Shown one piece after another: positions 4,233-64,000 of a DNA stretch of 64,000 bases. Both the position numbers and the translations under genes were made by a program. Numbering within the stretch: position 1 is the stretch's first letter; every line of letters begins with the position of its first letter. The notes under the pieces were generated by a model. That model was not told where the DNA came from. It did no database searches and was given only the letters and a program-made list of their open reading frames with translations. Source of the DNA: Candidatus Nomurabacteria bacterium (GTDB lineage Bacteria; Patescibacteriota; WWE3; UBA101185; UBA10185); contig JACKGU010000001.1 of assembly GCA_020631855.1 (NCBI GenBank), positions 363,118-427,117 of the forward strand, given 5' to 3'.

Positions 4233-5091
4233 CTTTTACAAAAAAGAGAAACTGCTAATTGCAACAAACATAATATCTGTAACTATAACCTTTTTATTGC
4301 TTGGGGGGCTTGCCTTTGTAATAGCTTTCACACAAACAGGAATAAGAAAGCTTGAAGAACAAGCACAAATAACTATTTTTTTTGAAGATGCCTATCCTGA
4401 GTCATCAATACTCAACCTTGCAAACGAGCTAGAAAACGACCCTCAAGTAAGTAACGTGAACTACGTTTCAAAAGAAGAGGCCTATAGCATATTTACCGAT
4501 TTAAACAAGGACGAGCCTGTTCTTTTAGAATCAATAACTCCGGACATACTTCCGGCCAGCCTTGAGATAAAAACCAAAAAACTTGCCGATATGAACGATA
4601 TCTCAGAGAGACTATCGAACATGGATGGGGTTGAAGAAATAAAATTTTACAAAGATGTGATTGAACGCTTTACTTTTTGGACCAATGTTTCCTATGCTGT
4701 GGGAATAGCCCTCGTGTCATTGTTCTTGATAGTTTCGTATGCAATTATTCTCATAACGCTGCGCATAAACATAGGGTACATCGGCAAAGAACTTGAAATT
4801 CTAAAGCTAGTTGGTGCTTCAGATGCTTATATAAAAAATCCTCTAGTTAAGCAGGGGGTGAGTCTGGGATTAATTTCAGCATTTATTTCGGGAGCATTGC
4901 TACTTTCCTTTGCCCTGATCGTTCAATTTGCTCATCTTATTAACACAAACATTAAATTCGGCTTTATTCCTGAAATAGAAATAGCTTTGCCGATTTTCGC
5001 ACTAATTATAAATTTTGTACTTGTTGCTTCAGGTGCTGCACTAGGCTACATTGGTAGCGTTTCAGCAATTCAAAAATATATAAACCACTAA
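4222..5091 (+). CDS. ftsX: cell division permease FtsX
   Basis: TM1, a periplasmic domain and three C-terminal TM helices; it overlaps the ftsE stop. Confidence 0.75.
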   Translation: MKNSFYKKEKLLIATNIISVTITFLLLGGLAFVIAFTQTGIRKLEEQAQITIFFEDAYPESSILNLANELENDPQVSNVNYVSKEEAYSIFTDLNKDEPVLLESITPDILPASLEIKTKKLADMNDISERLSNMDGVEEIKFYKDVIERFTFWTNVSYAVGIALVSLFLIVSYAIILITLRINIGYIGKELEILKLVGASDAYIKNPLVKQGVSLGLISAFISGALLLSFALIVQFAHLINTNIKFGFIPEIEIALPIFALIINFVLVASGAALGYIGSVSAIQKYINH

Positions 5092-5093
5092 AA

Positions 5094-6305
5094 ATGAGGA
5101 TAACAAAAATACTACTATCGACAACTTTTCTTCTGGGCGCGCTATTTTTTATAGGAAAAACTTCTATTTTAGCGCAATTAGAAGAAGGGCCTATCTATGG
5201 AGCAACAGAGGGTGGCGACGATTTCGACAAAACAATGAAAGAGCTGGAAAAAAAGAAGCAGGAATATGAAAAGAAAATTAAAGACCTCCAGCAGGAAGAA
5301 AATTCTTTGCAGAAACAGATTGATACAGCAACCACACAAATATATTTAACACAAACTGAAATTAATATTAAACAACAAGAGATTGCAGAAACCGAAAAAG
5401 AGATACGGGAGTTAGGGGAAGATATAAGCGACCTTAAGAATAGAATAGCAAAGCTTAAGAAAACTATAGCGATACAACAAGATTACTTATCAGAGAGAAT
5501 GCGCGCAAGATATAAAACGGGAGAAAATTCATATGTAATAATGGTTTTTGGGTCAGATAAGTTCAATTCACTTTTACAAAAAACAAAATTCTTAAAAGTA
5601 ATGGAATACCAAGATAAAAAGCTTATTGCTGAAATGGACGCCACAAAAGCCGCCTACAACGACCAAAAAGATATTGCCGAAGACAAAAAGAAAGAAGCCG
5701 AAACACTACAAGATCAGCTGGAAAGGCAGCAAAACGAACTTGCAGCGGCCCGAGCGGAGCTTGACAGGCAAAAGGCAGATAAAGAAACTTTGCTCCGAGA
5801 AACTCAAAATGACGAGCAAAAATACCAATCCTTGCTCGCACAAGTAGAATCGGAAATGGCAGCCCTCAATATGGCTATAAACCTCCCTGAGGGGGGAGAA
5901 GAGGTGAAAAAAGGCGACATAATAGGTTTAATGGGAAATACGGGATGTTCCTCCGGACCGCACGTACATTTTGGCTTTATTAAAAACAGCAAAGCGGTCG
6001 ATCCTCTCCCCTACCTTAACGACGGCCATCTAAAGTGGCCTGTCAGTGACTGGCAGATAACCCAAGGGTTTGGCGCAAATTACTGGTTCTACATGAACAA
6101 CTTTGGGATTCCCGGACACGATGCTTTAGATATTGTCTCAAGAGGTCAGTGGTCAGGCGCGCCAATTAAGGCGGCCCGTGATGGAAAGTTACGCTATGCT
6201 CAAGATGCAAGAGTCTACTGCCCGTGGCTAAACAACTCCATCGGCAAGGGCGCGATTATTGACCACGGAGACGGAGAGAAAACTATCTACTGGCACCTGC
6301 AGTAA
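5094..6305 (+). CDS. coiled-coil M23 (LytM-type) peptidase, EnvC-like; M23 domain apparently circularly permuted
   Basis: N-terminal signal/TM and a long coiled coil (residues about 40-250). This is followed by GDIIGLMGNTGCSSGPHVHF...VDPLPYL (the C-terminal third of an M23 domain, with HxH), and only then by GHDALDI...(HxxxD)...GAIIDHGDGEKTIYWHLQ, which is the N-terminal two-thirds of the domain. Confidence 0.75.
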   Translation: MRITKILLSTTFLLGALFFIGKTSILAQLEEGPIYGATEGGDDFDKTMKELEKKKQEYEKKIKDLQQEENSLQKQIDTATTQIYLTQTEINIKQQEIAETEKEIRELGEDISDLKNRIAKLKKTIAIQQDYLSERMRARYKTGENSYVIMVFGSDKFNSLLQKTKFLKVMEYQDKKLIAEMDATKAAYNDQKDIAEDKKKEAETLQDQLERQQNELAAARAELDRQKADKETLLRETQNDEQKYQSLLAQVESEMAALNMAINLPEGGEEVKKGDIIGLMGNTGCSSGPHVHFGFIKNSKAVDPLPYLNDGHLKWPVSDWQITQGFGANYWFYMNNFGIPGHDALDIVSRGQWSGAPIKAARDGKLRYAQDARVYCPWLNNSIGKGAIIDHGDGEKTIYWHLQ

Positions 6306-6423
6306 AATCTTAATTCTTTATTGGCGAAAAAATGTAATGCCAAGGCCAAAATCAAAAAGGCATAAATCTATCCTACTTGTAATAGACACTTTTGCGCAAA
6401 GTTTTATATTAGCAATATAGAAT

Positions 6424-10163: not shown

Positions 10164-10239
10164 TGGTGGGTGATCCTGGGCTCGAACCAGGGACCACTCG
10201 TGTATAAGACGAGCGCTCTACCAACTGAGCTAATCACCC
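10164..10239 (-). tRNA. tRNA-Ile (anticodon UAU), CCA encoded
   Basis: A manual fold gives acceptor GGGUGAU/AUCACCC, a GCUC/GAGC D-stem, and an anticodon stem CUCGU/ACGAG with loop CUUAUAC (anticodon UAU). The T-loop is UUCGAGC and the 3' end is ACCA. Confidence 0.8.
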
Positions 10240-21634: not shown

Positions 21635-21709
21635 TCCCCTGTAGCTCAATGGTAGAGCGCCCGGCTGTTAACCGGTAGGTTGGTGGTTCGAGTCCACCCG
21701 GGGGAGCCA
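21635..21709 (+). tRNA. tRNA-Asn (anticodon GUU), CCA encoded
   Basis: U1-A72 acceptor (UCCCCUG/CGGGGGA), D-arm GCUC-AAUGGUA-GAGC, anticodon loop CUGUUAA, T-loop UUCGAGU, and a G discriminator followed by CCA. Confidence 0.8.
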
Positions 21710-22945
21710 AGTAGAATCAGTAGGCTCAGAAACACCATATTTAGCTGTGACAGCAACTAAATCCACTGGTTCTAACCGTCTATTTTTCACATATTCAGGA
21801 TTTTTACCCTCCTTGAATATCAAGAAGGGTTTTTCCAAGTCAATACACAGTTTTCTGTTATTAAGCATGAGGTTCTGACCAAGTAAAGATAAGATTTCTC
21901 TTTTAACAGTAAGTCCGCCATTTTCAAATCTCTCACGAACACTTGTAGCAAAGTTGAATACATCTTCAATCTTTTTGAGATATGCCTCTCTATTTTGTTC
22001 ATCTGCACTTAGTTCATCTTTAAGCTCGTCTCGTTTAGCTTTTACTTCAACTTTAATGTCTAGGTACTCTTCGCTAGAAATCTCATTATTCATACGCATG
22101 GTCAACAAATCTGCCAACTGCTTCTCTAGTCTTTTATATTCTTTTTGTTTTGATTCCAAGATTTGAAGAGAAGTTTCAGATTCGGTTTTACTCTTTTCAG
22201 TGAGGTATTTAACCGCCCAATCACGAAACTCAATTGGTATTTCGATTGATGACACCAACTCTATTATCTGCTCTTCTAAATCTAATAATGTTATAGATTT
22301 TTGCTTGCATTTAACGTGGGGTTTTCTTTTGGAACAATGATAGTAATCATATATGCCTATATTGCCCGTTTTAGGATAGTGCTTTTCCTTATGTGTTGCC
22401 GTTATAGCACACCCACATTCAGCACAATGTATCAGACCCGTATAAAGATGTACGTGTGTCTTTGGTTTTCGTTTAAGCTTTCTGCTCAGGATTTCTTGCA
22501 CCGAGTTAAATTCCTTTTTGGTCACCATTTTGGGGTGTTCACCTTTCCGTAACTGACCCTTATACCTAAAGTAACCATAATAAAAGGGGTTACTGAAAAT
22601 GTCATATAATCCTGATTTAGATATAGGTTTGCCACCAGATTTTTTTCTCTTAATAGAGCGGTAATTCCATTGGTTATTAGCAATTTCAAGTATTTCAGGA
22701 ACTGTATATGCTCCTGTAAGCATCAAATCCCACATTTTCCTTACCAAATCGAAGCGTTCTTGGTCTTTAATGATGGTGTTTTTACCTTTTTCCTTATACA
22801 TTGTGTTTAGATAACCCGCAGGAGCAACAGAAGGTAACCACCCTTTTTCAACTTTGGATTCTAGACCATCTGCAACTCTTTCCCCTTTTACATCATTCTC
22901 AAATTTAGCATTAAGCATGTTGTATTGGAGCATTAAGATTCCCAT
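21668..22945 (-). pseudogene. 5'-truncated large serine recombinase (lacks catalytic resolvase domain); C-terminal 14 codons antisense to tRNA-Asn
   Basis: It aligns with residues from about 150 onward of the intact recombinase at 60434..62047 (GWLPSVAPAGY vs LSPTPKYGY; FSNPFYYGYF vs FRDPFYYGVL). Zn-ribbon cysteines CAECGC...HC and a coiled coil are present. The resolvase domain and its catalytic serine (conserved RSxE/DQ context) are absent. Confidence 0.65.
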
Positions 22946-49998: not shown

Positions 49999-51834
49999 AT
50001 GCAAAAAAATGCAAAAGTTCTTTCCATTATAATTTCTGTCACTTTAATTTTTAATTTTTTCCTTCAGCCAATGGCGGCTTTCGAACAAAATACCAGCTTG
50101 GCCGACTCCGACGCATCTTTTGCAGCAAACGTTCTTGGAGATAATGTTGGGAATGCCCTATCAAGCGCAGGAGATGTAAACGGGGACGGTTATGACGACT
50201 TTCTATTAGGCGTACGTTACGGCGGGGATATAGAGGCCGGCGCAGTTTATCTGATACTAGGAAAGGCAGAGGGCTGGGCTATGGGAGCAGATATAGACGA
50301 TGCAGACGCTTCTTTTGAAGGCGAAGAAGCTTACGACAACGCTGGATACTCAATCGCCGGCGCAGGAGATGTAAACAACGATGGTTATGACGATTTCTTA
50401 ATCGGTGCCCCAGATGCTGATTCCGGACTAGGTAAAACGTATCTGATTCTTGGTAAAGAAGAGGGTTGGGCTATGGAAACAAGCCTAGCTGACGCAGACG
50501 CTTCTTTTGTGGGAGAGTACGAATCTGATTACTCGGGCTCCTCAGTCTCCGGAGCAGGCGATGTAAACAACGATGGTTATGACGATTTCTTAATCGGTGT
50601 CTCAGATGCTGATTCCGGAATAGGTAAAACGTATCTGATTCTTGGTAAAGAAGAGGGTTGGGCTATGGAAACAAGCCTAGCTGACGCAGACGCTTCTTTT
50701 GTGGGAGAGTACGAATCTGATTACTCGGGCTTCTCAGTATCCGGAGCAGGTGATGTAAACAACGATGGTTATGACGATTTCTTAATCGGTGCCCCAGATG
50801 CTGACTCAGAAACAGGAGAAACATATCTGATTCTTGGTAAGGACGAAGGCTGGGCAGCAGAAACAAGCCTGGCTGATGCAGACGCTTCTTTTGTGGGAGA
50901 GTACGAATCTGATTACTCGGGCTTCTCAGTCTCCGGAGCAGGTGATGTAAACAACGATGGTTATGACGATTTCTTAATCGGTGCCCCAGATGCTGACTCA
51001 GAAACAGGAGAAATATATCTGATTCTTGGTAAAGAAGGGAGTTGGGCTATGGAAACAAGCCTAGCTGACGCAGACGCTTCTTTTGAAGGCGAAGAAGCTT
51101 ACGACAGCGCTGGATACTCAATCGCCGGCGCAGGAGATGTAAACGATGATGGCTATGATGATTTTCTATTAGGATCTCCGTGGTATAACGAAACAGAGGA
51201 CGCATACGAAGGAAAATCCTATTTAATACTGGGCAAAGAAGGGGGTTGGGCTATGGAAACAAGCCTGGCTGACGCAGACGCTTCTTTTATAGGAGAATAC
51301 ATATACGATTATTCAGGGCAAGCAGTCTCGGGTGCAGGAGATGTGAACGGGGATGGCGCAGATGACATACTTATAGGGGCTCCCGGAGATGGTGAAGATG
51401 AAAACCTATACGGAAGGGTGTATCTACTACTAGGCACTCCTTCGGAAGAGGATCCCTCCGAGGACATAATAACTAACGATAACAACAACCCCACCCCAAA
51501 AAACACATTCAAAAAAGATGCCAAATGCCGATGGCAAGATCCTAACGAACTCACGTGGGTTTTGCTAGAACCAATGGACAAAAACGGAGTGTCAGGAATC
51601 AATCTTACATGGGTACAGTATGGTGCCGATAAAATTAATATTAAAATAGACGACGGCACAGGCAGCTACCCCTGGAATATAACAGAAATTTCAAACGATG
51701 GGCAAGAGTTTCTTCCAAACGTATTTGCATGGCAAAATATAAAAGTGCAGGCGGTGAACCACTGTAACAAAGGTAAGTGGAGCCAAGAATTTTCTTACAC
51801 TTCCTATCCTGAGGGCTGGTATAACGTTAAGTAG
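49999..51834 (+). CDS. FG-GAP repeat (integrin-alpha-like 7-bladed beta-propeller) secreted protein with C-terminal beta-sandwich domain
   Basis: Signal peptide; seven repeats of GDVN(G/N)DGYDDFLIGAP...YLILGKEEGW...ADADASF. Confidence 0.75.
   Translation: MQKNAKVLSIIISVTLIFNFFLQPMAAFEQNTSLADSDASFAANVLGDNVGNALSSAGDVNGDGYDDFLLGVRYGGDIEAGAVYLILGKAEGWAMGADIDDADASFEGEEAYDNAGYSIAGAGDVNNDGYDDFLIGAPDADSGLGKTYLILGKEEGWAMETSLADADASFVGEYESDYSGSSVSGAGDVNNDGYDDFLIGVSDADSGIGKTYLILGKEEGWAMETSLADADASFVGEYESDYSGFSVSGAGDVNNDGYDDFLIGAPDADSETGETYLILGKDEGWAAETSLADADASFVGEYESDYSGFSVSGAGDVNNDGYDDFLIGAPDADSETGEIYLILGKEGSWAMETSLADADASFEGEEAYDSAGYSIAGAGDVNDDGYDDFLLGSPWYNETEDAYEGKSYLILGKEGGWAMETSLADADASFIGEYIYDYSGQAVSGAGDVNGDGADDILIGAPGDGEDENLYGRVYLLLGTPSEEDPSEDIITNDNNNPTPKNTFKKDAKCRWQDPNELTWVLLEPMDKNGVSGINLTWVQYGADKINIKIDDGTGSYPWNITEISNDGQEFLPNVFAWQNIKVQAVNHCNKGKWSQEFSYTSYPEGWYNVK
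50173..51400 (+). repeat. seven tandem 192-bp intragenic repeats (FG-GAP blades); units 2-5 nearly identical at nucleotide level
   Basis: GATGTAAAC recurs at 50173, 50368, 50560, 50752, 50944, 51136 and 51340. Units 50368-51135 are more than 90% identical. Confidence 0.7.
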
Positions 51835-56590: not shown

Positions 56591-57792
56591 CTAAGAGTCT
56601 TGTTGCAGAGTAGGGGCACTTAAAGCATATAATATGCTTCCAAGTTCCTTCTTCTGCTCTTCATTTAATAACATCTGTGGTTGTTCTTCAGGGTAGACGT
56701 TTTCAAGACTTTTAAGAAGTCCTAGTGCCTTCTGCAAGGGCAGTCTTGCCTCCAGATCTAAGATTACTTCGTTAAAACGAGTCCGCATTGGAAGCAAATT
56801 GTTGATTACTTCCTCTGAAAACACAGGAGAGAGAGAGCAGCCCAAAGTCTAGGACCTGCTACCATCTCTAGAAACCCACGCTCCCCCAAAGACATGCCTT
56901 GTACTGCTCTTAAAAACTCGACGGTGTCTTTTGCTGAGTAGTTCGTCGAATTAGCAAAAGTAATAAAATCGGGACGTGTTTCCCAAAAATGTCGGAGTGA
57001 CGAGGAGATTCTTTCTTCGATTTTATTAGAAAAAACTCCTCCTAGATCAGCGTAAACTGCGCAGGCAACTACCTGAGGCAAAACTGGTATGTGCGTCCCA
57101 GAAGCACACACCGCGTCAACTAGATCTTGGGCATCAATTATTTTTGTACGAGTAAGAGCGGCTGGCCAAGATCCTCCAACAAGATCCTCGGTATGTATTC
57201 TCAAGTTAGTTGCTGCGATAGTCCCCACAGCTACAAGCACAATAGCTTCATAGTCTAGGATTTCATCCCGTGAATTTTCGTTTATTGCGTTGGCCGAATA
57301 TAACATAGCCGCTATGGACTCGGTTTCGTTGCTGAGGCTAAAATTAGGACCTCGGCCATGTAGAAAAACGATCGAATCGTGGTATGCCATGCCCATTAAA
57401 AGTCCGAAGATTTGTTCCTTAGTGAGGGATTCTTTACATAAATCCGTAACTGTAGACAACCTCTCTATAGTTTGAAGAGTGTGAAGCTCGTCGTGATAAA
57501 CCCTATGATGAGCCTCTGATCCCTCTAACCTATATACTTCTGGAAACCAAATTCCATTTAACACTAAGTGTTGTAGGGAATTTTGAGCGTGCCCACTAGT
57601 AGCACAAGCTATAACATTACTAGAAATAAACCCTTCTACTGTTTTGGCCGCCGGTACACTCAGCCCCAGGCCTACAAATCTACTAAAAAGCTCTTCGCTA
57701 GAAAAGGCTACATCAAGCCTCCACCTTTTGTCTCCAGATGCAGCCCTTGCAATGCCTCCATCTTCAGGTTTTGGGCCTCCTTTGGTCGCCAT
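56591..57792 (-). pseudogene. hypothetical protein split by a frameshift (56806..57792 + 56591..56845), GC-richer than surroundings; possible HD-like motifs
   Basis: Two same-strand ORFs overlap by 40 nt in different frames. AHHRVYHD and MAYHDS motifs are present. The local GC content is visibly higher than the flanks. Confidence 0.35.
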
Positions 57793-60413: not shown

Positions 60414-60491
60414 CGGGGTATAGCTCAGCTTGGCTAGAGCGCACGATTCGGGTTCGTGAGGCCGCAGGTTCGAATCCTGCTACCCCGACCA
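60414..60491 (+). tRNA. tRNA-Pro (anticodon CGG), CCA encoded
   Basis: Acceptor CGGGGUA/UACCCCG, D-arm GCUC-AGCUUGGCUA-GAGC, anticodon stem CACGA/UCGUG with loop UUCGGGU, T-arm GCAGG-UUCGAAU-CCUGC, ends ACCA. Confidence 0.8.
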
Positions 60492-62047
60492 TTGGATTTT
60501 TCCCTCTGTTTGAATAGGGTGTTGAATGGTTCTTTTAGTTGGTATGAAAGGATTTCGTCATCTCCAACATCGATGTTCAAGAATATAAATCGGCAAATTG
60601 CATCTTTTACAGCAGGACCGCCGTTTTTTACTGCTACTGGAGCGTTTTTCGATAAGTTCAAGAATTGTTCCAAACTTATCTCCTCTACCTCTGATTTTTC
60701 CAGCTTTTCATTTAATTTCTCCATTTCCATTTCCAATTCCTCTTGTTGAATTGATAAATTCTCGATTTCCTGTTCACCAACTTTTCTAGCCGTCTTGTTT
60801 GTGGATGACTTCAATACAGATAAGGACAATTCCTTTATTTGAGTTTTAACAAAGTTCAGAGAACCTTGCGTGCTATGCAACAAGGTCCTTAACTCAGCCC
60901 TTCTTTTATCGCTTATCTGCTTGAGGCTTCCGTAATAAGCGTTGTACTCCTTTTCAGTAAAATTGAGACCATCATCAAGTAGTTCATATATAAAATCCAT
61001 TACGAACTTCATCCTGACTGATTTTTTGATACCATTTGGGTTTTCTTCAGTCTCTTGGTAGCGTAAACAGCTCTTGTTATCACACCTTGCATACAGATTC
61101 CTCGTCACTTTATTTCCACTTAAAGAAGGTGCGATATACATATTCCCACCACAAAAAGCACACTTAACAATTCCTTTTAATGGATAGAAAGCTAGTCTCT
61201 GTCTAGTCCTGTAGGGGGTCTGATGGACTCTGGATTGTTGCTGTATGCGAAAGAAATCAGCCTCTGCAACCGCAGGGACAAAGTCATAAATTTCTCTCAA
61301 GTCCACGCTTTGGTTAGCCTGTACCAAAACACCATAATAAAAAGGGTCTCTAAACATTTCAGAAAGTTTCTGAGGTGTCATCTTTGTTTTCCTCCTAGTC
61401 TTTTTTATTTCTCTAAAATATCCAAAGGAATTTATAGTTTCAGAAATTTCTTCGTGGGGCTTTCCCTCTAGCTTCATACTCCATGCAGTTTTAATGAGTT
61501 CGTGGTTATCACCATCTGGTCTGTATATGCCATCCTCATTTTTGTAACCGTATTTAGGTGTTGGTGATAGACCCTTTTTCAGGTTATCTCTTACTCCTCT
61601 TGTGACATCCACTGATAGCTTGTCAGAATACTGTTTAGATAACACAAATGCTATACCTAATAGCATTTTTCCACTAGGCGTGTTTTCGAAGTGATGAGTT
61701 ACAAATTTCAGATCTACTATAGATCCCTCATCCAACATGTTTATTATTTCTCCTCCCTCCTTCATATTCCTTGCTAGACGGTCTGGGTGCCACGATAATA
61801 TGCCATCGTACTCTTTTCTTTTTAACTTACGTAATACTTCAGTAAACTTTTCTCGTTTCCCTGGAGATTTTGCGGAACCTTCTTCCTTTATTATCTCTAC
61901 GACATTAAGACCCTTATACTTAGCGAATTTTTCACAGACATCTTTTTGTTGAGGAATCGATTTCAACTGACCCTCATTGTCCTCTCGGGATCTTCTTAAA
62001 TACATTACATATTTTAACTTTGTAATATCCAATTGCTCATCTATCAT
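60434..62047 (-). CDS. large serine recombinase (integrase), full length; last 19 codons antisense to tRNA-Pro
   Basis: N-terminal resolvase domain YLRRSREDNEGQLKSIPQQ (catalytic Ser), a recombinase domain, a Zn-ribbon (CAFCGG...CDNKSC) and a coiled coil. The stop codon TAG lies at tRNA-Pro nt 21-23 on the opposite strand. Confidence 0.85.
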   Translation of the reverse strand: MIDEQLDITKLKYVMYLRRSREDNEGQLKSIPQQKDVCEKFAKYKGLNVVEIIKEEGSAKSPGKREKFTEVLRKLKRKEYDGILSWHPDRLARNMKEGGEIINMLDEGSIVDLKFVTHHFENTPSGKMLLGIAFVLSKQYSDKLSVDVTRGVRDNLKKGLSPTPKYGYKNEDGIYRPDGDNHELIKTAWSMKLEGKPHEEISETINSFGYFREIKKTRRKTKMTPQKLSEMFRDPFYYGVLVQANQSVDLREIYDFVPAVAEADFFRIQQQSRVHQTPYRTRQRLAFYPLKGIVKCAFCGGNMYIAPSLSGNKVTRNLYARCDNKSCLRYQETEENPNGIKKSVRMKFVMDFIYELLDDGLNFTEKEYNAYYGSLKQISDKRRAELRTLLHSTQGSLNFVKTQIKELSLSVLKSSTNKTARKVGEQEIENLSIQQEELEMEMEKLNEKLEKSEVEEISLEQFLNLSKNAPVAVKNGGPAVKDAICRFIFLNIDVGDDEILSYQLKEPFNTLFKQREKSNGRGSRIRTCGLTNPNRAL

Positions 62048-62342
62048 CTATTTAATTATAAAGGTGCAGATTAAACTTATAAACTGTTCAAGACATTCCA
62101 CGCTAATACTTTAAAAGTTGATTCGACCTCCATTATTATCACTCATTGAGGTTGCATTTATAGGCATTAATAACTGTTCATCAATGTTAAGCAAATATTC
62201 AACTAAACCTATTAGGTTTTTAGTTTGATTATTTACGGGGACTTTAGTCTCCTTTTGCTTAACTTTTTTAGCCATATATCTTGTTCGTAAAACATGTAAT
62301 TTTTTAGGTTATGAGGGATGTAGTTACACATCCCCCACACAT

Positions 62343-62855
62343 TTATCCTCTTTGCCAATTTCTAAGCTTTTCTGGTAAATTCTGTCCCAAAAGAAACTTT
62401 AGTTTCGCTTGAGGGTCGTCTCTAAACATTTCCAGTTTTCTTTCAAAAAGCATGTTCTCATCGATTTCCATGTTATCCAGCTCCCTAAGAGCCTCTAACA
62501 TCTTCATTTTTAATTCTGGTTCACTTGTTTCTTCTAGTCCGTCTTCTAATAAGTCCTGTACCTTCGCTTTCTTTCTCATGACCTCTGTTTCTTGAGTAAC
62601 CAAATCAGTAAGTAATTGTCTGATTTGTCCCAATGTATAGCCTTCTGACTTCAATACATCGATCAGCTCGAGATAGTCCACCATTGCTTCTGGGTAGTAT
62701 CCAGTTGACCCTACGCCTCCTTCTGGAAGCTTTTTCCTCAACATTCTAGGTAAAAGACCTTCTTTTCTTGCGGATTCAATGCTAGTACTTATGTTCCTAT
62801 TTAATATCTCTTTTTCCATCTGAGTTCTTGTTAGGTATTTCATTGTTATCACCAC
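62343..62855 (-). CDS. MerR-family HTH transcriptional regulator (phage-type)
   Basis: KEGLLPRMLRKKLPEGGVGSTGYYPEAMVDYLELIDVLKSEGYTLGQIRQLL matches the MerR DNA-binding domain pattern (GLL.P.R..g..R.Y......L..I..L...G.sL.eI..LL). Confidence 0.5.
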   Translation of the reverse strand: MVITMKYLTRTQMEKEILNRNISTSIESARKEGLLPRMLRKKLPEGGVGSTGYYPEAMVDYLELIDVLKSEGYTLGQIRQLLTDLVTQETEVMRKKAKVQDLLEDGLEETSEPELKMKMLEALRELDNMEIDENMLFERKLEMFRDDPQAKLKFLLGQNLPEKLRNWQRG

Positions 62856-63194
62856 CTTTAGTTGTTAAAATTTGCAACAAAAAAAGGAACTCGCCCACAA
62901 AGATTTGCAAATCCTCATGTTTGAATTCCTATTACTGATACTCGTTGAAAAAGTTATAAAAATATAACTTAGTAGATAGATTCTATTACAATTAAGAACA
63001 TGCGTCAACCACTATTTACTGTACCTAAAGCAAATTCCTTAGGCTTTCTACGAATTTTCAAGCCTTAAAATACCTTATAGTTGCGTTTGGGTAAGGACTT
63101 AAAAATACAAATACTTTAAGTACAACAAATATGGCAACTCGTTAAATATATTTAACGTTTATAAATTGATATTACTCGTTGATATAATACAAAC

Positions 63195-64000
63195 ATGGAA
63201 AACGAAATAAATGTAGAAGAACTAATTGCAAATATAGAAGATGCATCCTCCGACTATAAATACGATCACCAAATTGCCGATGCCTTCCGAAAGATTATCG
63301 AGGATAACAAAGAGAAACTGACGGATGAACAACATAAATACTTGCAGTGGGAATTCCTGCTTTTCAGATTAATGACAAAAAACAGATTTAACAACGACAT
63401 GATTAAGACACCTAGGTTTGTCCCGATGGCTACATTTACAGATGGAAGTATCTTTCCAGATCCCGACACATTCCCTAAAGAATCCTTTGAATATTTCAGT
63501 CGTAGAACTAAAAAAACCAAGAGTCCTATCTTTAAATCACGTTACTTGGACTTTCTCTGGGAAAAATCAGATCTGGAAAACAAACATCTATTTGCAATTG
63601 AAGCAATAGAGGAGTACCTAAAAGCAATAGATGCTTATGAAAATGAGGATGCAATAATAGAAAAACTAGATTGTATGCAACGAGCAGCAGAACTTGCGCT
63701 CATTTTAGAGAATTCTCTAGACGAAAAACCAAACATACTAAAGGTATCAGATAAAGTAAAGGAAATGATAACTGCAACTAGAGAATCTGGAAAACACAGA
63801 TGGCTGCTAGAACAGTTTGAGTTAGTCATTGCTCTGTCTGATTTCTTTTCCAGAGAAGAGATAGAAGAATATATTGGGTTAGTTGAAACCATAGTCAAAA
63901 AATATCATGCCGACGGTAATTTTCACTTGCAAAGAAGTTTCTTGGATATAAAGGGTAACCTAGCGACCCTACTTGAAGATAATAAGGATACAAAGAACAA
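63195..64000 (+). CDS. hypothetical protein, 3'-partial (runs off window); absent from ORF track because unterminated
   Basis: ATG at 63195 and no stop codon through 64000 (268 codons); MENEINVEELIANIED... Confidence 0.45.
   Translation, partial: MENEINVEELIANIEDASSDYKYDHQIADAFRKIIEDNKEKLTDEQHKYLQWEFLLFRLMTKNRFNNDMIKTPRFVPMATFTDGSIFPDPDTFPKESFEYFSRRTKKTKSPIFKSRYLDFLWEKSDLENKHLFAIEAIEEYLKAIDAYENEDAIIEKLDCMQRAAELALILENSLDEKPNILKVSDKVKEMITATRESGKHRWLLEQFELVIALSDFFSREEIEEYIGLVETIVKKYHADGNFHLQRSFLDIKGNLATLLEDNKDTKN

Follow-up and report, generated by a model that had tools for sequence, protein, structure and literature searches.

A large serine recombinase gene that runs into tRNA-Pro, and the proposed attachment sites of its small integrative element in a patescibacterial genome

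The recombinase gene and its overlap with tRNA-Pro

We analysed a 64,000-nucleotide (nt) stretch of DNA from a Candidatus Nomurabacteria bacterium (contig JACKGU010000001.1, positions 363,118 to 427,117; hereafter the window), near whose right-hand end a gene for a large serine recombinase (LSR) runs into a transfer RNA (tRNA) gene. ARAGORN identified an intact tRNA-Pro(CGG) with an encoded CCA end on the plus strand (60414-60491). The LSR gene lies on the minus strand (60434-62047) and, according to the list of open reading frames (ORFs) and Pfam, encodes 537 amino acids (aa) in the integrated state. The two genes overlap by 58 nt (60434-60491), and the LSR terminates with a TAG stop codon at tRNA-Pro nt 21-23, on the opposite strand. 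An earlier interpretation made from the letters alone (the sequence-only reading) had described this antisense termination, and both ARAGORN and the ORF list agree with it. Antisense tRNA-Pro specifies the final 18 sense codons of the LSR (GRGSRIRTCGLTNPNRAL) and the stop; the minus strand at the end of the gene reads AAT GGT CGG GGT AGC AGG ATT CGA ACC TGC GGC CTC ACG AAC CCG AAT CGT GCG CTC TAG. LSR residues ~522-537 (GSRIRTCGLTNPNRAL) and the stop are decoded from the antisense tRNA, and these residues would be host-encoded, occurring solely in the integrated state. Most likely, the tail belongs to the host as its B arm and lies outside the element proper. The attL core region was placed at 60484-60493, where the minus strand reads AATGGTCGGG, corresponding to tRNA nt 69-76 plus 2 nt.

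The LSR protein matched the Pfam families Resolvase (PF00239; 4.8e-20, residues 14-159), Recombinase (PF07508; 2.5e-7), and Zn_ribbon_recom (PF13408; 5e-5, with 24.0 bits slightly below the 25.3 cut-off). It also matched the PHROG integrase family phrog_95 (2e-52), and a sequence search of the PDB returned a catalytic domain as its sole match (6e-5). In an alignment of the LSR with 29 homologs (30 sequences), Y16, R18, S20, and Q27 were invariant, as were the cysteines at positions 296, 299, 322, and 327. The AlphaFold model of one homolog, P0075, showed an ordinary LSR fold up to residue ~504, with long paired helices at residues 353-400 and 405-435 that form a coiled coil. The sequence-only reading had credited the LSR with all of its domains; this held for the catalytic, recombinase, and zinc-ribbon domains, while the coiled coil was visible solely in the P0075 model. 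A serine recombinase was the only recombinase type in the element, whereas classical tRNA islands are defined by a tyrosine recombinase. We rate the enzyme as an ordinary serine integrase by its fold and site geometry, with an unusual target class and an unusual arrangement of its gene across the attachment site attP.

The overlap proved to be a property of the family. About 1,500 LSR homologs were present in the protein collection at E <= 0.001. A scan of species-representative genomes yielded 598 LSR relatives, and 50 loci align over almost their full length. The best 80 loci came nearly all from Patescibacteria (Roizman-, Davies-, Gottesman-, and Amesbacteria, Saccharibacteria, Peregrinibacteria, Paceibacterota, and Gracilibacteria); relatives in IMG/VR were distant, with at most about 30% identity over the full length. 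The C-termini of the homologs resemble antisense tRNA translated in a single frame. The LSR ORF ended inside the antisense 3' end of a tRNA or transfer-messenger RNA (tmRNA) gene in 42 of the 50 full-length relatives, and a single reading frame, in which the T-loop triplet Y-G-A forms one codon, was used in 41 of these 42 loci. The target RNAs span 17 types, including Pro, Leu, Met, Lys, Asp, Ser, His, Gln, Gly, Ala, Ile, Val, and tmRNA.

The point of termination varied within this fixed frame. The T-loop codon itself was the stop (TGA or TAA) in 20/42 loci, where the T-loop reads TTCAA or TTTAA. In 14/42 loci, the window LSR included, the T-loop reads TTCGA and the stop was a D-loop triplet 39 nt beyond the T-loop codon; six of the 42 ORFs stopped earlier. 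The window LSR thus reads on to the D-loop because its T-loop is TTCGA. The systematic overlap is at least 11-22 nt, and the extra 12 residues of the window LSR are an accidental read-through. The sequence-only reading had proposed comparing the tRNA-antisense C-termini of homologs, and by that comparison the overlap and its frame are systematic but the length of the tail is accidental. Its suggestion that such recombinases recurrently target tRNA 3' ends holds beyond the genome of the window: tRNA 3' ends are a recurrent LSR target, and this is a family-wide rule across Patescibacteria.

The far end of the element and the detached extension

The window was extended with a 79-kb contig (L001) that bears the exact LSR protein. 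The element measures 7,040 bp, running rightwards from about window position 60,488 to an attR at virtual coordinate ~67.5 kb, beyond the window end, and it is one of a large family of serine-integrase elements, which are small (about 3-11 kb) and have tRNA and tmRNA genes as their targets. The view that an intact LSR marks the integrase-proximal end of a tRNA-Pro integrative element, already put forward in the sequence-only reading, is supported by the family-wide overlap and by the far-end sites. No long repeat of the tRNA-Pro 3' end was found in the 9.9 kb beyond the LSR, where the best 22-mer matched at 13/22 positions, which is background, and attL and attR have only the 10-nt AATGGTCGGG in common. 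In L001, the far end consists of AATGGTCGGG, then GGAGCGATAAATCTTGAAC, and then a 46-codon open stretch (4515-4661), 7,040 bp from the tRNA end. L001 4515-4545 reads AATGGTCGGGAAGGAGCGATAAATCTTGAAC, and the open stretch up to 4661 encodes ...NGREGAINLEQLLPLAESIFENWDIEKFDEGLLTPVGAGVEHESIYKY followed by a stop, in the same codon register as the ...NGRGSR of the LSR.

The boundaries of this far-end segment recurred elsewhere. In three independent contexts (L119, L120, and L121), homology to L001 begins at 4511-4512, which is a few bases short of the AATGGTCG core, and stops at the stop codon of the open stretch (4657-4661). Ten database ORFs were 78-91% identical to the encoded peptide, and they diverge just before 'REGAINLEQ' (mostly 'GREGAINLEQ'). 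The motif TCGARNRGGAGCGAWWRATCTTGAAC followed by a stretch of 44-52 codons was found 3.6-7 kb upstream of the LSR in the remaining Pro-type loci (L006, L007, L011, L012, L054, L077, L110, and L116), and the motif was also present upstream of truncated LSRs in L023 and L062. As TCGARNRGGAGCGAWWRATCTTGAAC is conserved across hosts and unlike each local tRNA, it is therefore element-borne. Judged by its sequence, the far end is the putative P arm of the element itself, together with the detached end, ~45 codons long, of the LSR ORF. The sequence-only reading had instead expected a partial tRNA-Pro 3' repeat there and had regarded the lack of one as a point against its proposal; the repeat is indeed lacking, but that expectation was badly posed for a serine integrase. 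In L120 (9345-10144) and L121 (10018-10817), the detached stretch is accompanied by a 186-aa gene and tRNA-Pro(TGG) with no integrase, an arrangement that looks like a decayed element shrunk to about 0.7 kb.

The detached stretch is hereafter called the extension. It is 44-54 codons long with an aromatic-rich Y-x-Y/F terminus, and at most far-end sites the in-frame open stretch starts 0-9 codons ahead of the core and has no start codon. The far-end pieces of L001, L006, and L077 and both L116 junctions are in the LSR codon register. The tandem arrays L116 and L117 contain fusions of the upstream LSR with the extension of the next element, which give proteins of 554 aa (P0075) and 577 aa (P0117). 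The same fused extension was found in P0038 (555 aa) of L118, a contig that represents either a tandem array or a free form. Recognisable extensions exist for elements of the Leu, Met, Ser, His, Ala, Ile, and tmRNA types. Among core matches upstream of an LSR, an in-frame ORF of 44-54 codons followed in 38/267, compared with 15/267 and 8/267 for the two remaining frames and 14/225 for the reverse strand, an in-frame enrichment of about 3-fold over the controls. The ratio of nonsynonymous to synonymous substitution rates (dN/dS) of the extension was 0.10 between L001 and L110, 0.23 between the two L116 copies (L116a and L116b), and 0.42 between L006 and L077. The extension thus looks like coding sequence.

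On the basis of these integrated copies, the recombination core would lie inside the ORF of the free-form integrase. This fits the earlier proposal that attP lies within the 3' part of the recombinase ORF, which is supported by the in-frame far-end pieces and the tandem-array fusions. The circular form would encode an enzyme of ~566 aa ending in the conserved extension (...EGAINLEQLLPLAESIFENWDIEKFDEGLLTPVGAGVEHESIYKY), and integration would swap the extension for tRNA-encoded residues.

Attachment sites, mechanism and alternative explanations

The positions of conserved motifs on the two sides of the core were compared as offsets, with the count beginning at the codon over the complement of CCA. 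All 41 target RNAs have the T-loop GAAC at offset 19. At the far-end sites, the corresponding GAAC or AAAC lies at offset 24 in 26/28 cases and at 25 in the other 2/28. For the Listeria (LI) integrase, the zinc-ribbon motif is 5 bp nearer the centre in attB than in attP (PMC3783163), and the 5-bp outward shift at the far-end sites agrees with that relation. Given the uniformity of the shift, we take the T-loop to be the outer motif and the acceptor 3' strand the inner motif of the B half-site, and the far-end motif to be the P arm. The ends of the L116 array share GTCG/TAGTCG. Since this identity and the 10-nt identity in L001 bound the exchange, the crossover probably lies within G-T-C-G, at tRNA nt ~71-74. 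A first crossover model, with exchange in the T-loop and duplication of 17-21 nt of the tRNA, had been drawn from L017, L054, L056, and L110; it was rejected for Pro-type elements because the far-end motif is conserved between hosts and shifted by 5 bp. The dyad symmetry of the attP reconstructed for L001 (TTCAA...TTGAA) fails in L116 and was not used.

We consider it likely that the window contains the attL of a 7,040-bp element inserted at the extreme 3' end of tRNA-Pro(CGG), with an LSR ORF that spans attP and an attB built on the T-loop. In the proposed mechanism, the acceptor 3' strand would form the inner half of attB and the universal T-loop (TTCGAA/TTCAA) would serve as its zinc-ribbon motif, while attP would bear the same outer motif 5 bp further out. 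Strand exchange at about tRNA nt 71-74 would leave the tRNA body to the host, the element giving only the discriminator, CCA, and trailer. On the circle, the ORF would extend past the core by about 45 codons, which come from the opposite end of the element, and reach ~566 aa; after integration, it would run antisense through the tRNA to a chance stop, giving 537 aa. The predicted circular junction is ...GGGAAAAATCCAATGGTCGGGAAGGAGCGATAAATCTTGAAC..., and the predicted empty site is ...GGCTGGTTTTTTAAATGGTCGGGGTAGCAGGATTCGAACC.... The window element may still be mobile.

A second LSR clade also uses tRNA genes. Within the window, tRNA-Asn(GTT) (ARAGORN; 21635-21709, plus strand) is overlapped by 42 nt by the remnant of another LSR gene (21668-22945, minus strand), whose stop lies in the anticodon loop. 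This remnant encodes 425 aa and is N-terminally truncated, retaining Recombinase and Zn-ribbon domains but not the catalytic domain (Pfam). The rest of its element is gone, and a MacB/FtsX gene abuts it. The sequence-only reading took it for a decayed copy with the same geometry as at tRNA-Pro. The truncation and the overlap stand, but the remnant is not the same family member in decayed form: it belongs to a separate clade, is only 24% identical to the tRNA-Pro LSR, and reads the tRNA in another frame, in which the CCA complement TGG encodes Trp. Just outside the attR of the 7-kb element, at L001 3914-4543, lies a second-clade LSR reduced to its C-terminal half, which is 31% identical to and colinear with the tRNA-Asn remnant, and this piece ends in the tRNA-Pro-like piece that forms attR. 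Because a second-clade LSR half lies beside attR, the tRNA-Pro site appears to have been used before by that clade, which indicates successive occupation by two integrase clades. In two IMG/VR contigs (L098 and L100), the LSRs of the second clade have at their ends a tRNA 3' half that comprises the acceptor, the T-arm, and part of the anticodon arm, and the 5' half is missing. These ends resemble an attP carrying half a tRNA, and the second clade may cross over in the anticodon loop.

Several observations weigh against the proposed site and mechanism. Four assemblies of the species span the site, and all four carry the element at 99.7-100% identity. No empty site was found through exact copies of the neighbouring YibE/F protein, the short contigs breaking inside the tRNA; among YibE/F homologs, the nearest were 54-63% identical and showed no synteny. 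The predicted circular junction was not found in two viral-contig scans, and L111, L117, and L118, considered as possible free circles, have no terminal overlap. The crossover is bounded by short identities alone (4-10 nt). In L110 (7761-7940), the 3' end of the LSR gene holds an exact 21-nt copy of the tRNA-Pro(TGG) 3' end, with the intact tRNA 176 nt further on; this arrangement could stem from a mini-insertion or from what is left of another type of element. In L111, no piece of a tRNA is present. As for the extension, the P0075 model gave it as two helices with a predicted local distance difference test score (pLDDT) of 30-50, which is uninformative; dS was saturated for most of the other, more distant pairs; and the conservation of its N-terminus ('LE' = TTGAA) partly reflects constraint on the DNA site, not on the protein. 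In addition, the loci are mostly metagenome-assembled, and tRNAs are frequent assembly break points. Apart from these points, we noted that the L110 spacer between the 21-nt copy and the intact tRNA had no match among the sequences compared.

Other explanations were weighed on the same evidence. The element could be a fixed, immobile remnant, in which the LSR and the ends are slowly decaying relics, or the LSR is domesticated, and the tRNA overlap has no present function. The presence of the element in every assembly of the species and the lack of any observed empty site or circle fit this, as does the frequent decay among family members (the tRNA-Asn remnant, the truncated second-clade LSR beside attR, and L120/L121). 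However, the LSR ORF is intact with all invariant residues, as is the 54-aa partner ORF directly upstream of it (see below), and the detached 46-codon extension has no stops and matches its copies in ten other contexts at 78-91% identity. Two other samples, moreover, have in common a block of 5,413 bp that is 100% identical but has another junction on its left. We regard an immobile remnant as unlikely. If the integrase merely lay beside the tRNA, with the far-end 45-codon stretch being an unrelated small gene, the overlap would be a fortuitous read-through. The length of the tRNA-encoded tail is indeed accidental, set by the presence of a T-loop stop, but overlap with tRNA or tmRNA in 42/50 relatives, in one frame in 41/42 and with 17 kinds of target RNA, argues strongly against coincidence. 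The far-end ORFs, in the LSR frame, mostly lacking a start, fused in tandem arrays, and enriched ~3-fold, make this explanation highly improbable.

A classical tRNA island would have its crossover inside the tRNA (T-loop or anticodon loop), with the element bearing a duplicate of the tRNA 3' part inside the 3' end of its integrase gene, and with the host's own copy, once displaced, forming the far-end repeat; the integrase protein would then be the same in the free and integrated states. Longer end identities in some relatives point this way, namely 18 exact nt in L056 (tmRNA), 20/22 in L017, and the exact 21-nt duplicate in L110, as do the second-clade LSR ends in L098 and L100, which carry a tRNA 3' half up to the anticodon loop and no full tRNA. 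In the window element, by contrast, the best 22-mer of the tRNA 3' end reached only 13/22 in 9.9 kb and the ends share only 10 nt. The far-end sequence is kept between hosts, unlike the local tRNA, and the 5-bp shift of GAAC marks a P-type half-site. In L017, the site at 6204 was superseded by a proper P arm and extension at 6380. We thus consider a classical island quite improbable here and retain an insertion at the extreme 3' end of tRNA-Pro by an LSR whose ORF spans attP.

Serine integrases catalyse integration between attP and a shorter attB, with a 2-bp crossover, and excision requires a directionality factor. Against this background, a tentative possibility, which we hold to be doubtful as a whole, is that the C-terminal swap acts as a state sensor for the direction of recombination and that the family retargets by way of the T-loop. 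The full-length form with the extension, which the circle alone could encode, would integrate, whereas the stub form of the integrated state would be inert, or biased towards excision together with the conserved 54-aa partner. Because the universal T-loop would serve as the zinc-ribbon motif, the family could retarget to any tRNA or tmRNA by altering only its contacts with the inner acceptor stem.

Neighbouring genes, significance and known systems

Directly upstream of the LSR lies a 54-aa ORF on the minus strand (62111-62275), which is conserved in relatives. The sequence-only reading had listed a possible small ORF of 56 aa here (62105-62275, minus strand); it is real, with the length and coordinates given above. 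Its identity is 80% in L110, 61% in L111, and 50% in L017, and it is also present in L019 and L014, always adjoining the LSR; it is kept beside the LSR in Pro-, Leu-, and Met-type elements. It had no match in Pfam, PADLOC, or PHROG, and it is a candidate directionality factor or regulator. The next gene on the minus strand (62343-62855) encodes a 170-aa protein with a weak match to a MerR-type helix-turn-helix domain (PF13411; 1.3e-4). The ORF reported earlier as a MerR-type regulator is therefore present, but the assignment is marginal, at 22.4 bits over 33 residues (51-83). No blastp match to it was found among the L110, L111, and L054 ORFs compared with L001, and it is probably an element regulator that is not conserved in related elements.

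On the plus strand, an ORF that had been noted as leaving the window unterminated (63195-64000) is the 5' part of a cargo gene with DUF7380 and DUF4209 domains, which encodes 606 aa in the extended contig. The protein matched the PADLOC model PDLC05012 of the candidate defence family PDC-S39 along the whole model (2.8e-49, residues 17-575 of 606), and its gene is a candidate defence gene. Further into the element, a 26-nt sequence, GTCGCTAATTATAGCTTATACGACAT, is 100% identical in L001 (5430-5455, virtual ~66.6 kb), L110 (2805-2830), and L119 (11346-11371), three related elements with an identity of about 72-80% elsewhere. Its position in L001 and L110 is intergenic, about 1 kb inside the far end and adjoining an HTH_7-like gene; it may be an operator, a promoter, or an origin. 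A 5,413-bp block (L001 6298-11710) is 100% identical in two other samples, but the sequence to its left differs (L002 1-25 versus L001 6273-6297); its right end is the stop codon of the YibE/F gene. The differing left flank suggests variation of the cargo module within the element between strains. The breakpoint at L001 6297/6298 had been considered as an element end and was dropped, being now taken as internal cargo variation. A metagenome scan for the 25-nt alternative left flank of L002 returned L002 itself alone.

Elsewhere in the window, we observed a tRNA-Ile with the anticodon TAT (UAU) at 10164-10239, an uncommon bacterial means of reading AUA. An FG-GAP repeat protein gene (49999-51834) has internal repeats that are 77-86% identical to each other, and the length of its product differs by strain (483, 547, or 611 aa; L084-L087). 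At 56806-57792, a 328-aa ORF corresponds to a 399-aa gene in other assemblies, some of which show ORFs of 65-77 aa and 328 aa; this variation resembles a polymorphism by frameshift or stop.

The insertion of large DNA into genomes relies mainly on serine integrases as tools, and how their direction is controlled is an active structural question. What would be new to the field is a whole LSR family for which the universal T-loop of tRNA and tmRNA genes makes up half of the target, and an attP inside the integrase ORF, whereby the C-terminus of the enzyme varies with the state of integration. The family offers a natural experiment on site recognition, with the same outer motif placed 5 bp apart and at least 17 kinds of target RNA, and it might provide a factor-independent layer of directionality control. 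These are also widespread small mobile elements in Patescibacteria, some with candidate defence genes. In the searchable full-text literature, which is incomplete, we found no description of a serine integrase with attP inside its own ORF or with a state-dependent C-terminus, nor of this LSR family at tRNA or tmRNA genes of Patescibacteria or Saccharibacteria. A 2020 survey stated that the use of t(m)RNA genes by serine integrases was previously unreported and gave 14 of 297 predicted cases (PMC7192596). Our results bear on this statistic, by which serine integrases rarely use t(m)RNA genes.

Among known systems, phage-type LSRs (A118/LI, Bxb1, phiC31, and SPbeta SprA) have the same set of domains, the coiled coil being seen in the P0075 model. 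The family shares with them short attachment sites with few common bases, the absence of long flanking repeats, and a 5-bp offset of the motif between attP and attB. It differs from them in its target at tRNA and tmRNA 3' ends, in its remote sequence, and in the proposed position of attP inside the ORF, which would give a state-dependent C-terminus. In the choice of site, there is a parallel with those tyrosine-integrase tRNA islands whose insertion point is the 3' CCA end, one of the sublocation classes that Williams is said to have distinguished in 2002. These islands likewise sit at the very 3' end of a tRNA or tmRNA gene, with the integrase gene beside the tRNA and the element downstream. 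However, their enzymes belong to another superfamily, their blocks of identity are longer and accompanied by arm-type sites, and the integrase ORF stops short of crossing the junction.

Two further systems place an attachment site within a gene. In the mycobacteriophages BPs, Brujita, and Charlie, which Broussard et al. reportedly described in 2013, attP lies in a gene and integration alters the C-terminus and the behaviour of the protein. In that integration-dependent immunity, the altered gene encodes a repressor, the integrase is a tyrosine enzyme, and a demonstrated effect exists in the loss of a degradation tag; for the window LSR, the altered gene is that of the integrase itself and the effect is hypothetical. 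The archaeal SSV-type 'suicidal' tyrosine integrases (SSV1, pTN3, and pT26-2) have a tRNA-matching site inside the integrase ORF, and integration splits the gene (PMC8371274). The window LSR would resemble them in having an attachment site in its own ORF, with parts of the gene at both ends of the element, and in the compact module of integrase and site. Whereas the SSV-type tyrosine enzymes are split into inactive N- and C-terminal halves, the window LSR is a bacterial serine recombinase from which only the final ~45 of ~566 codons would be detached, its catalytic and DNA-binding domains remaining together.

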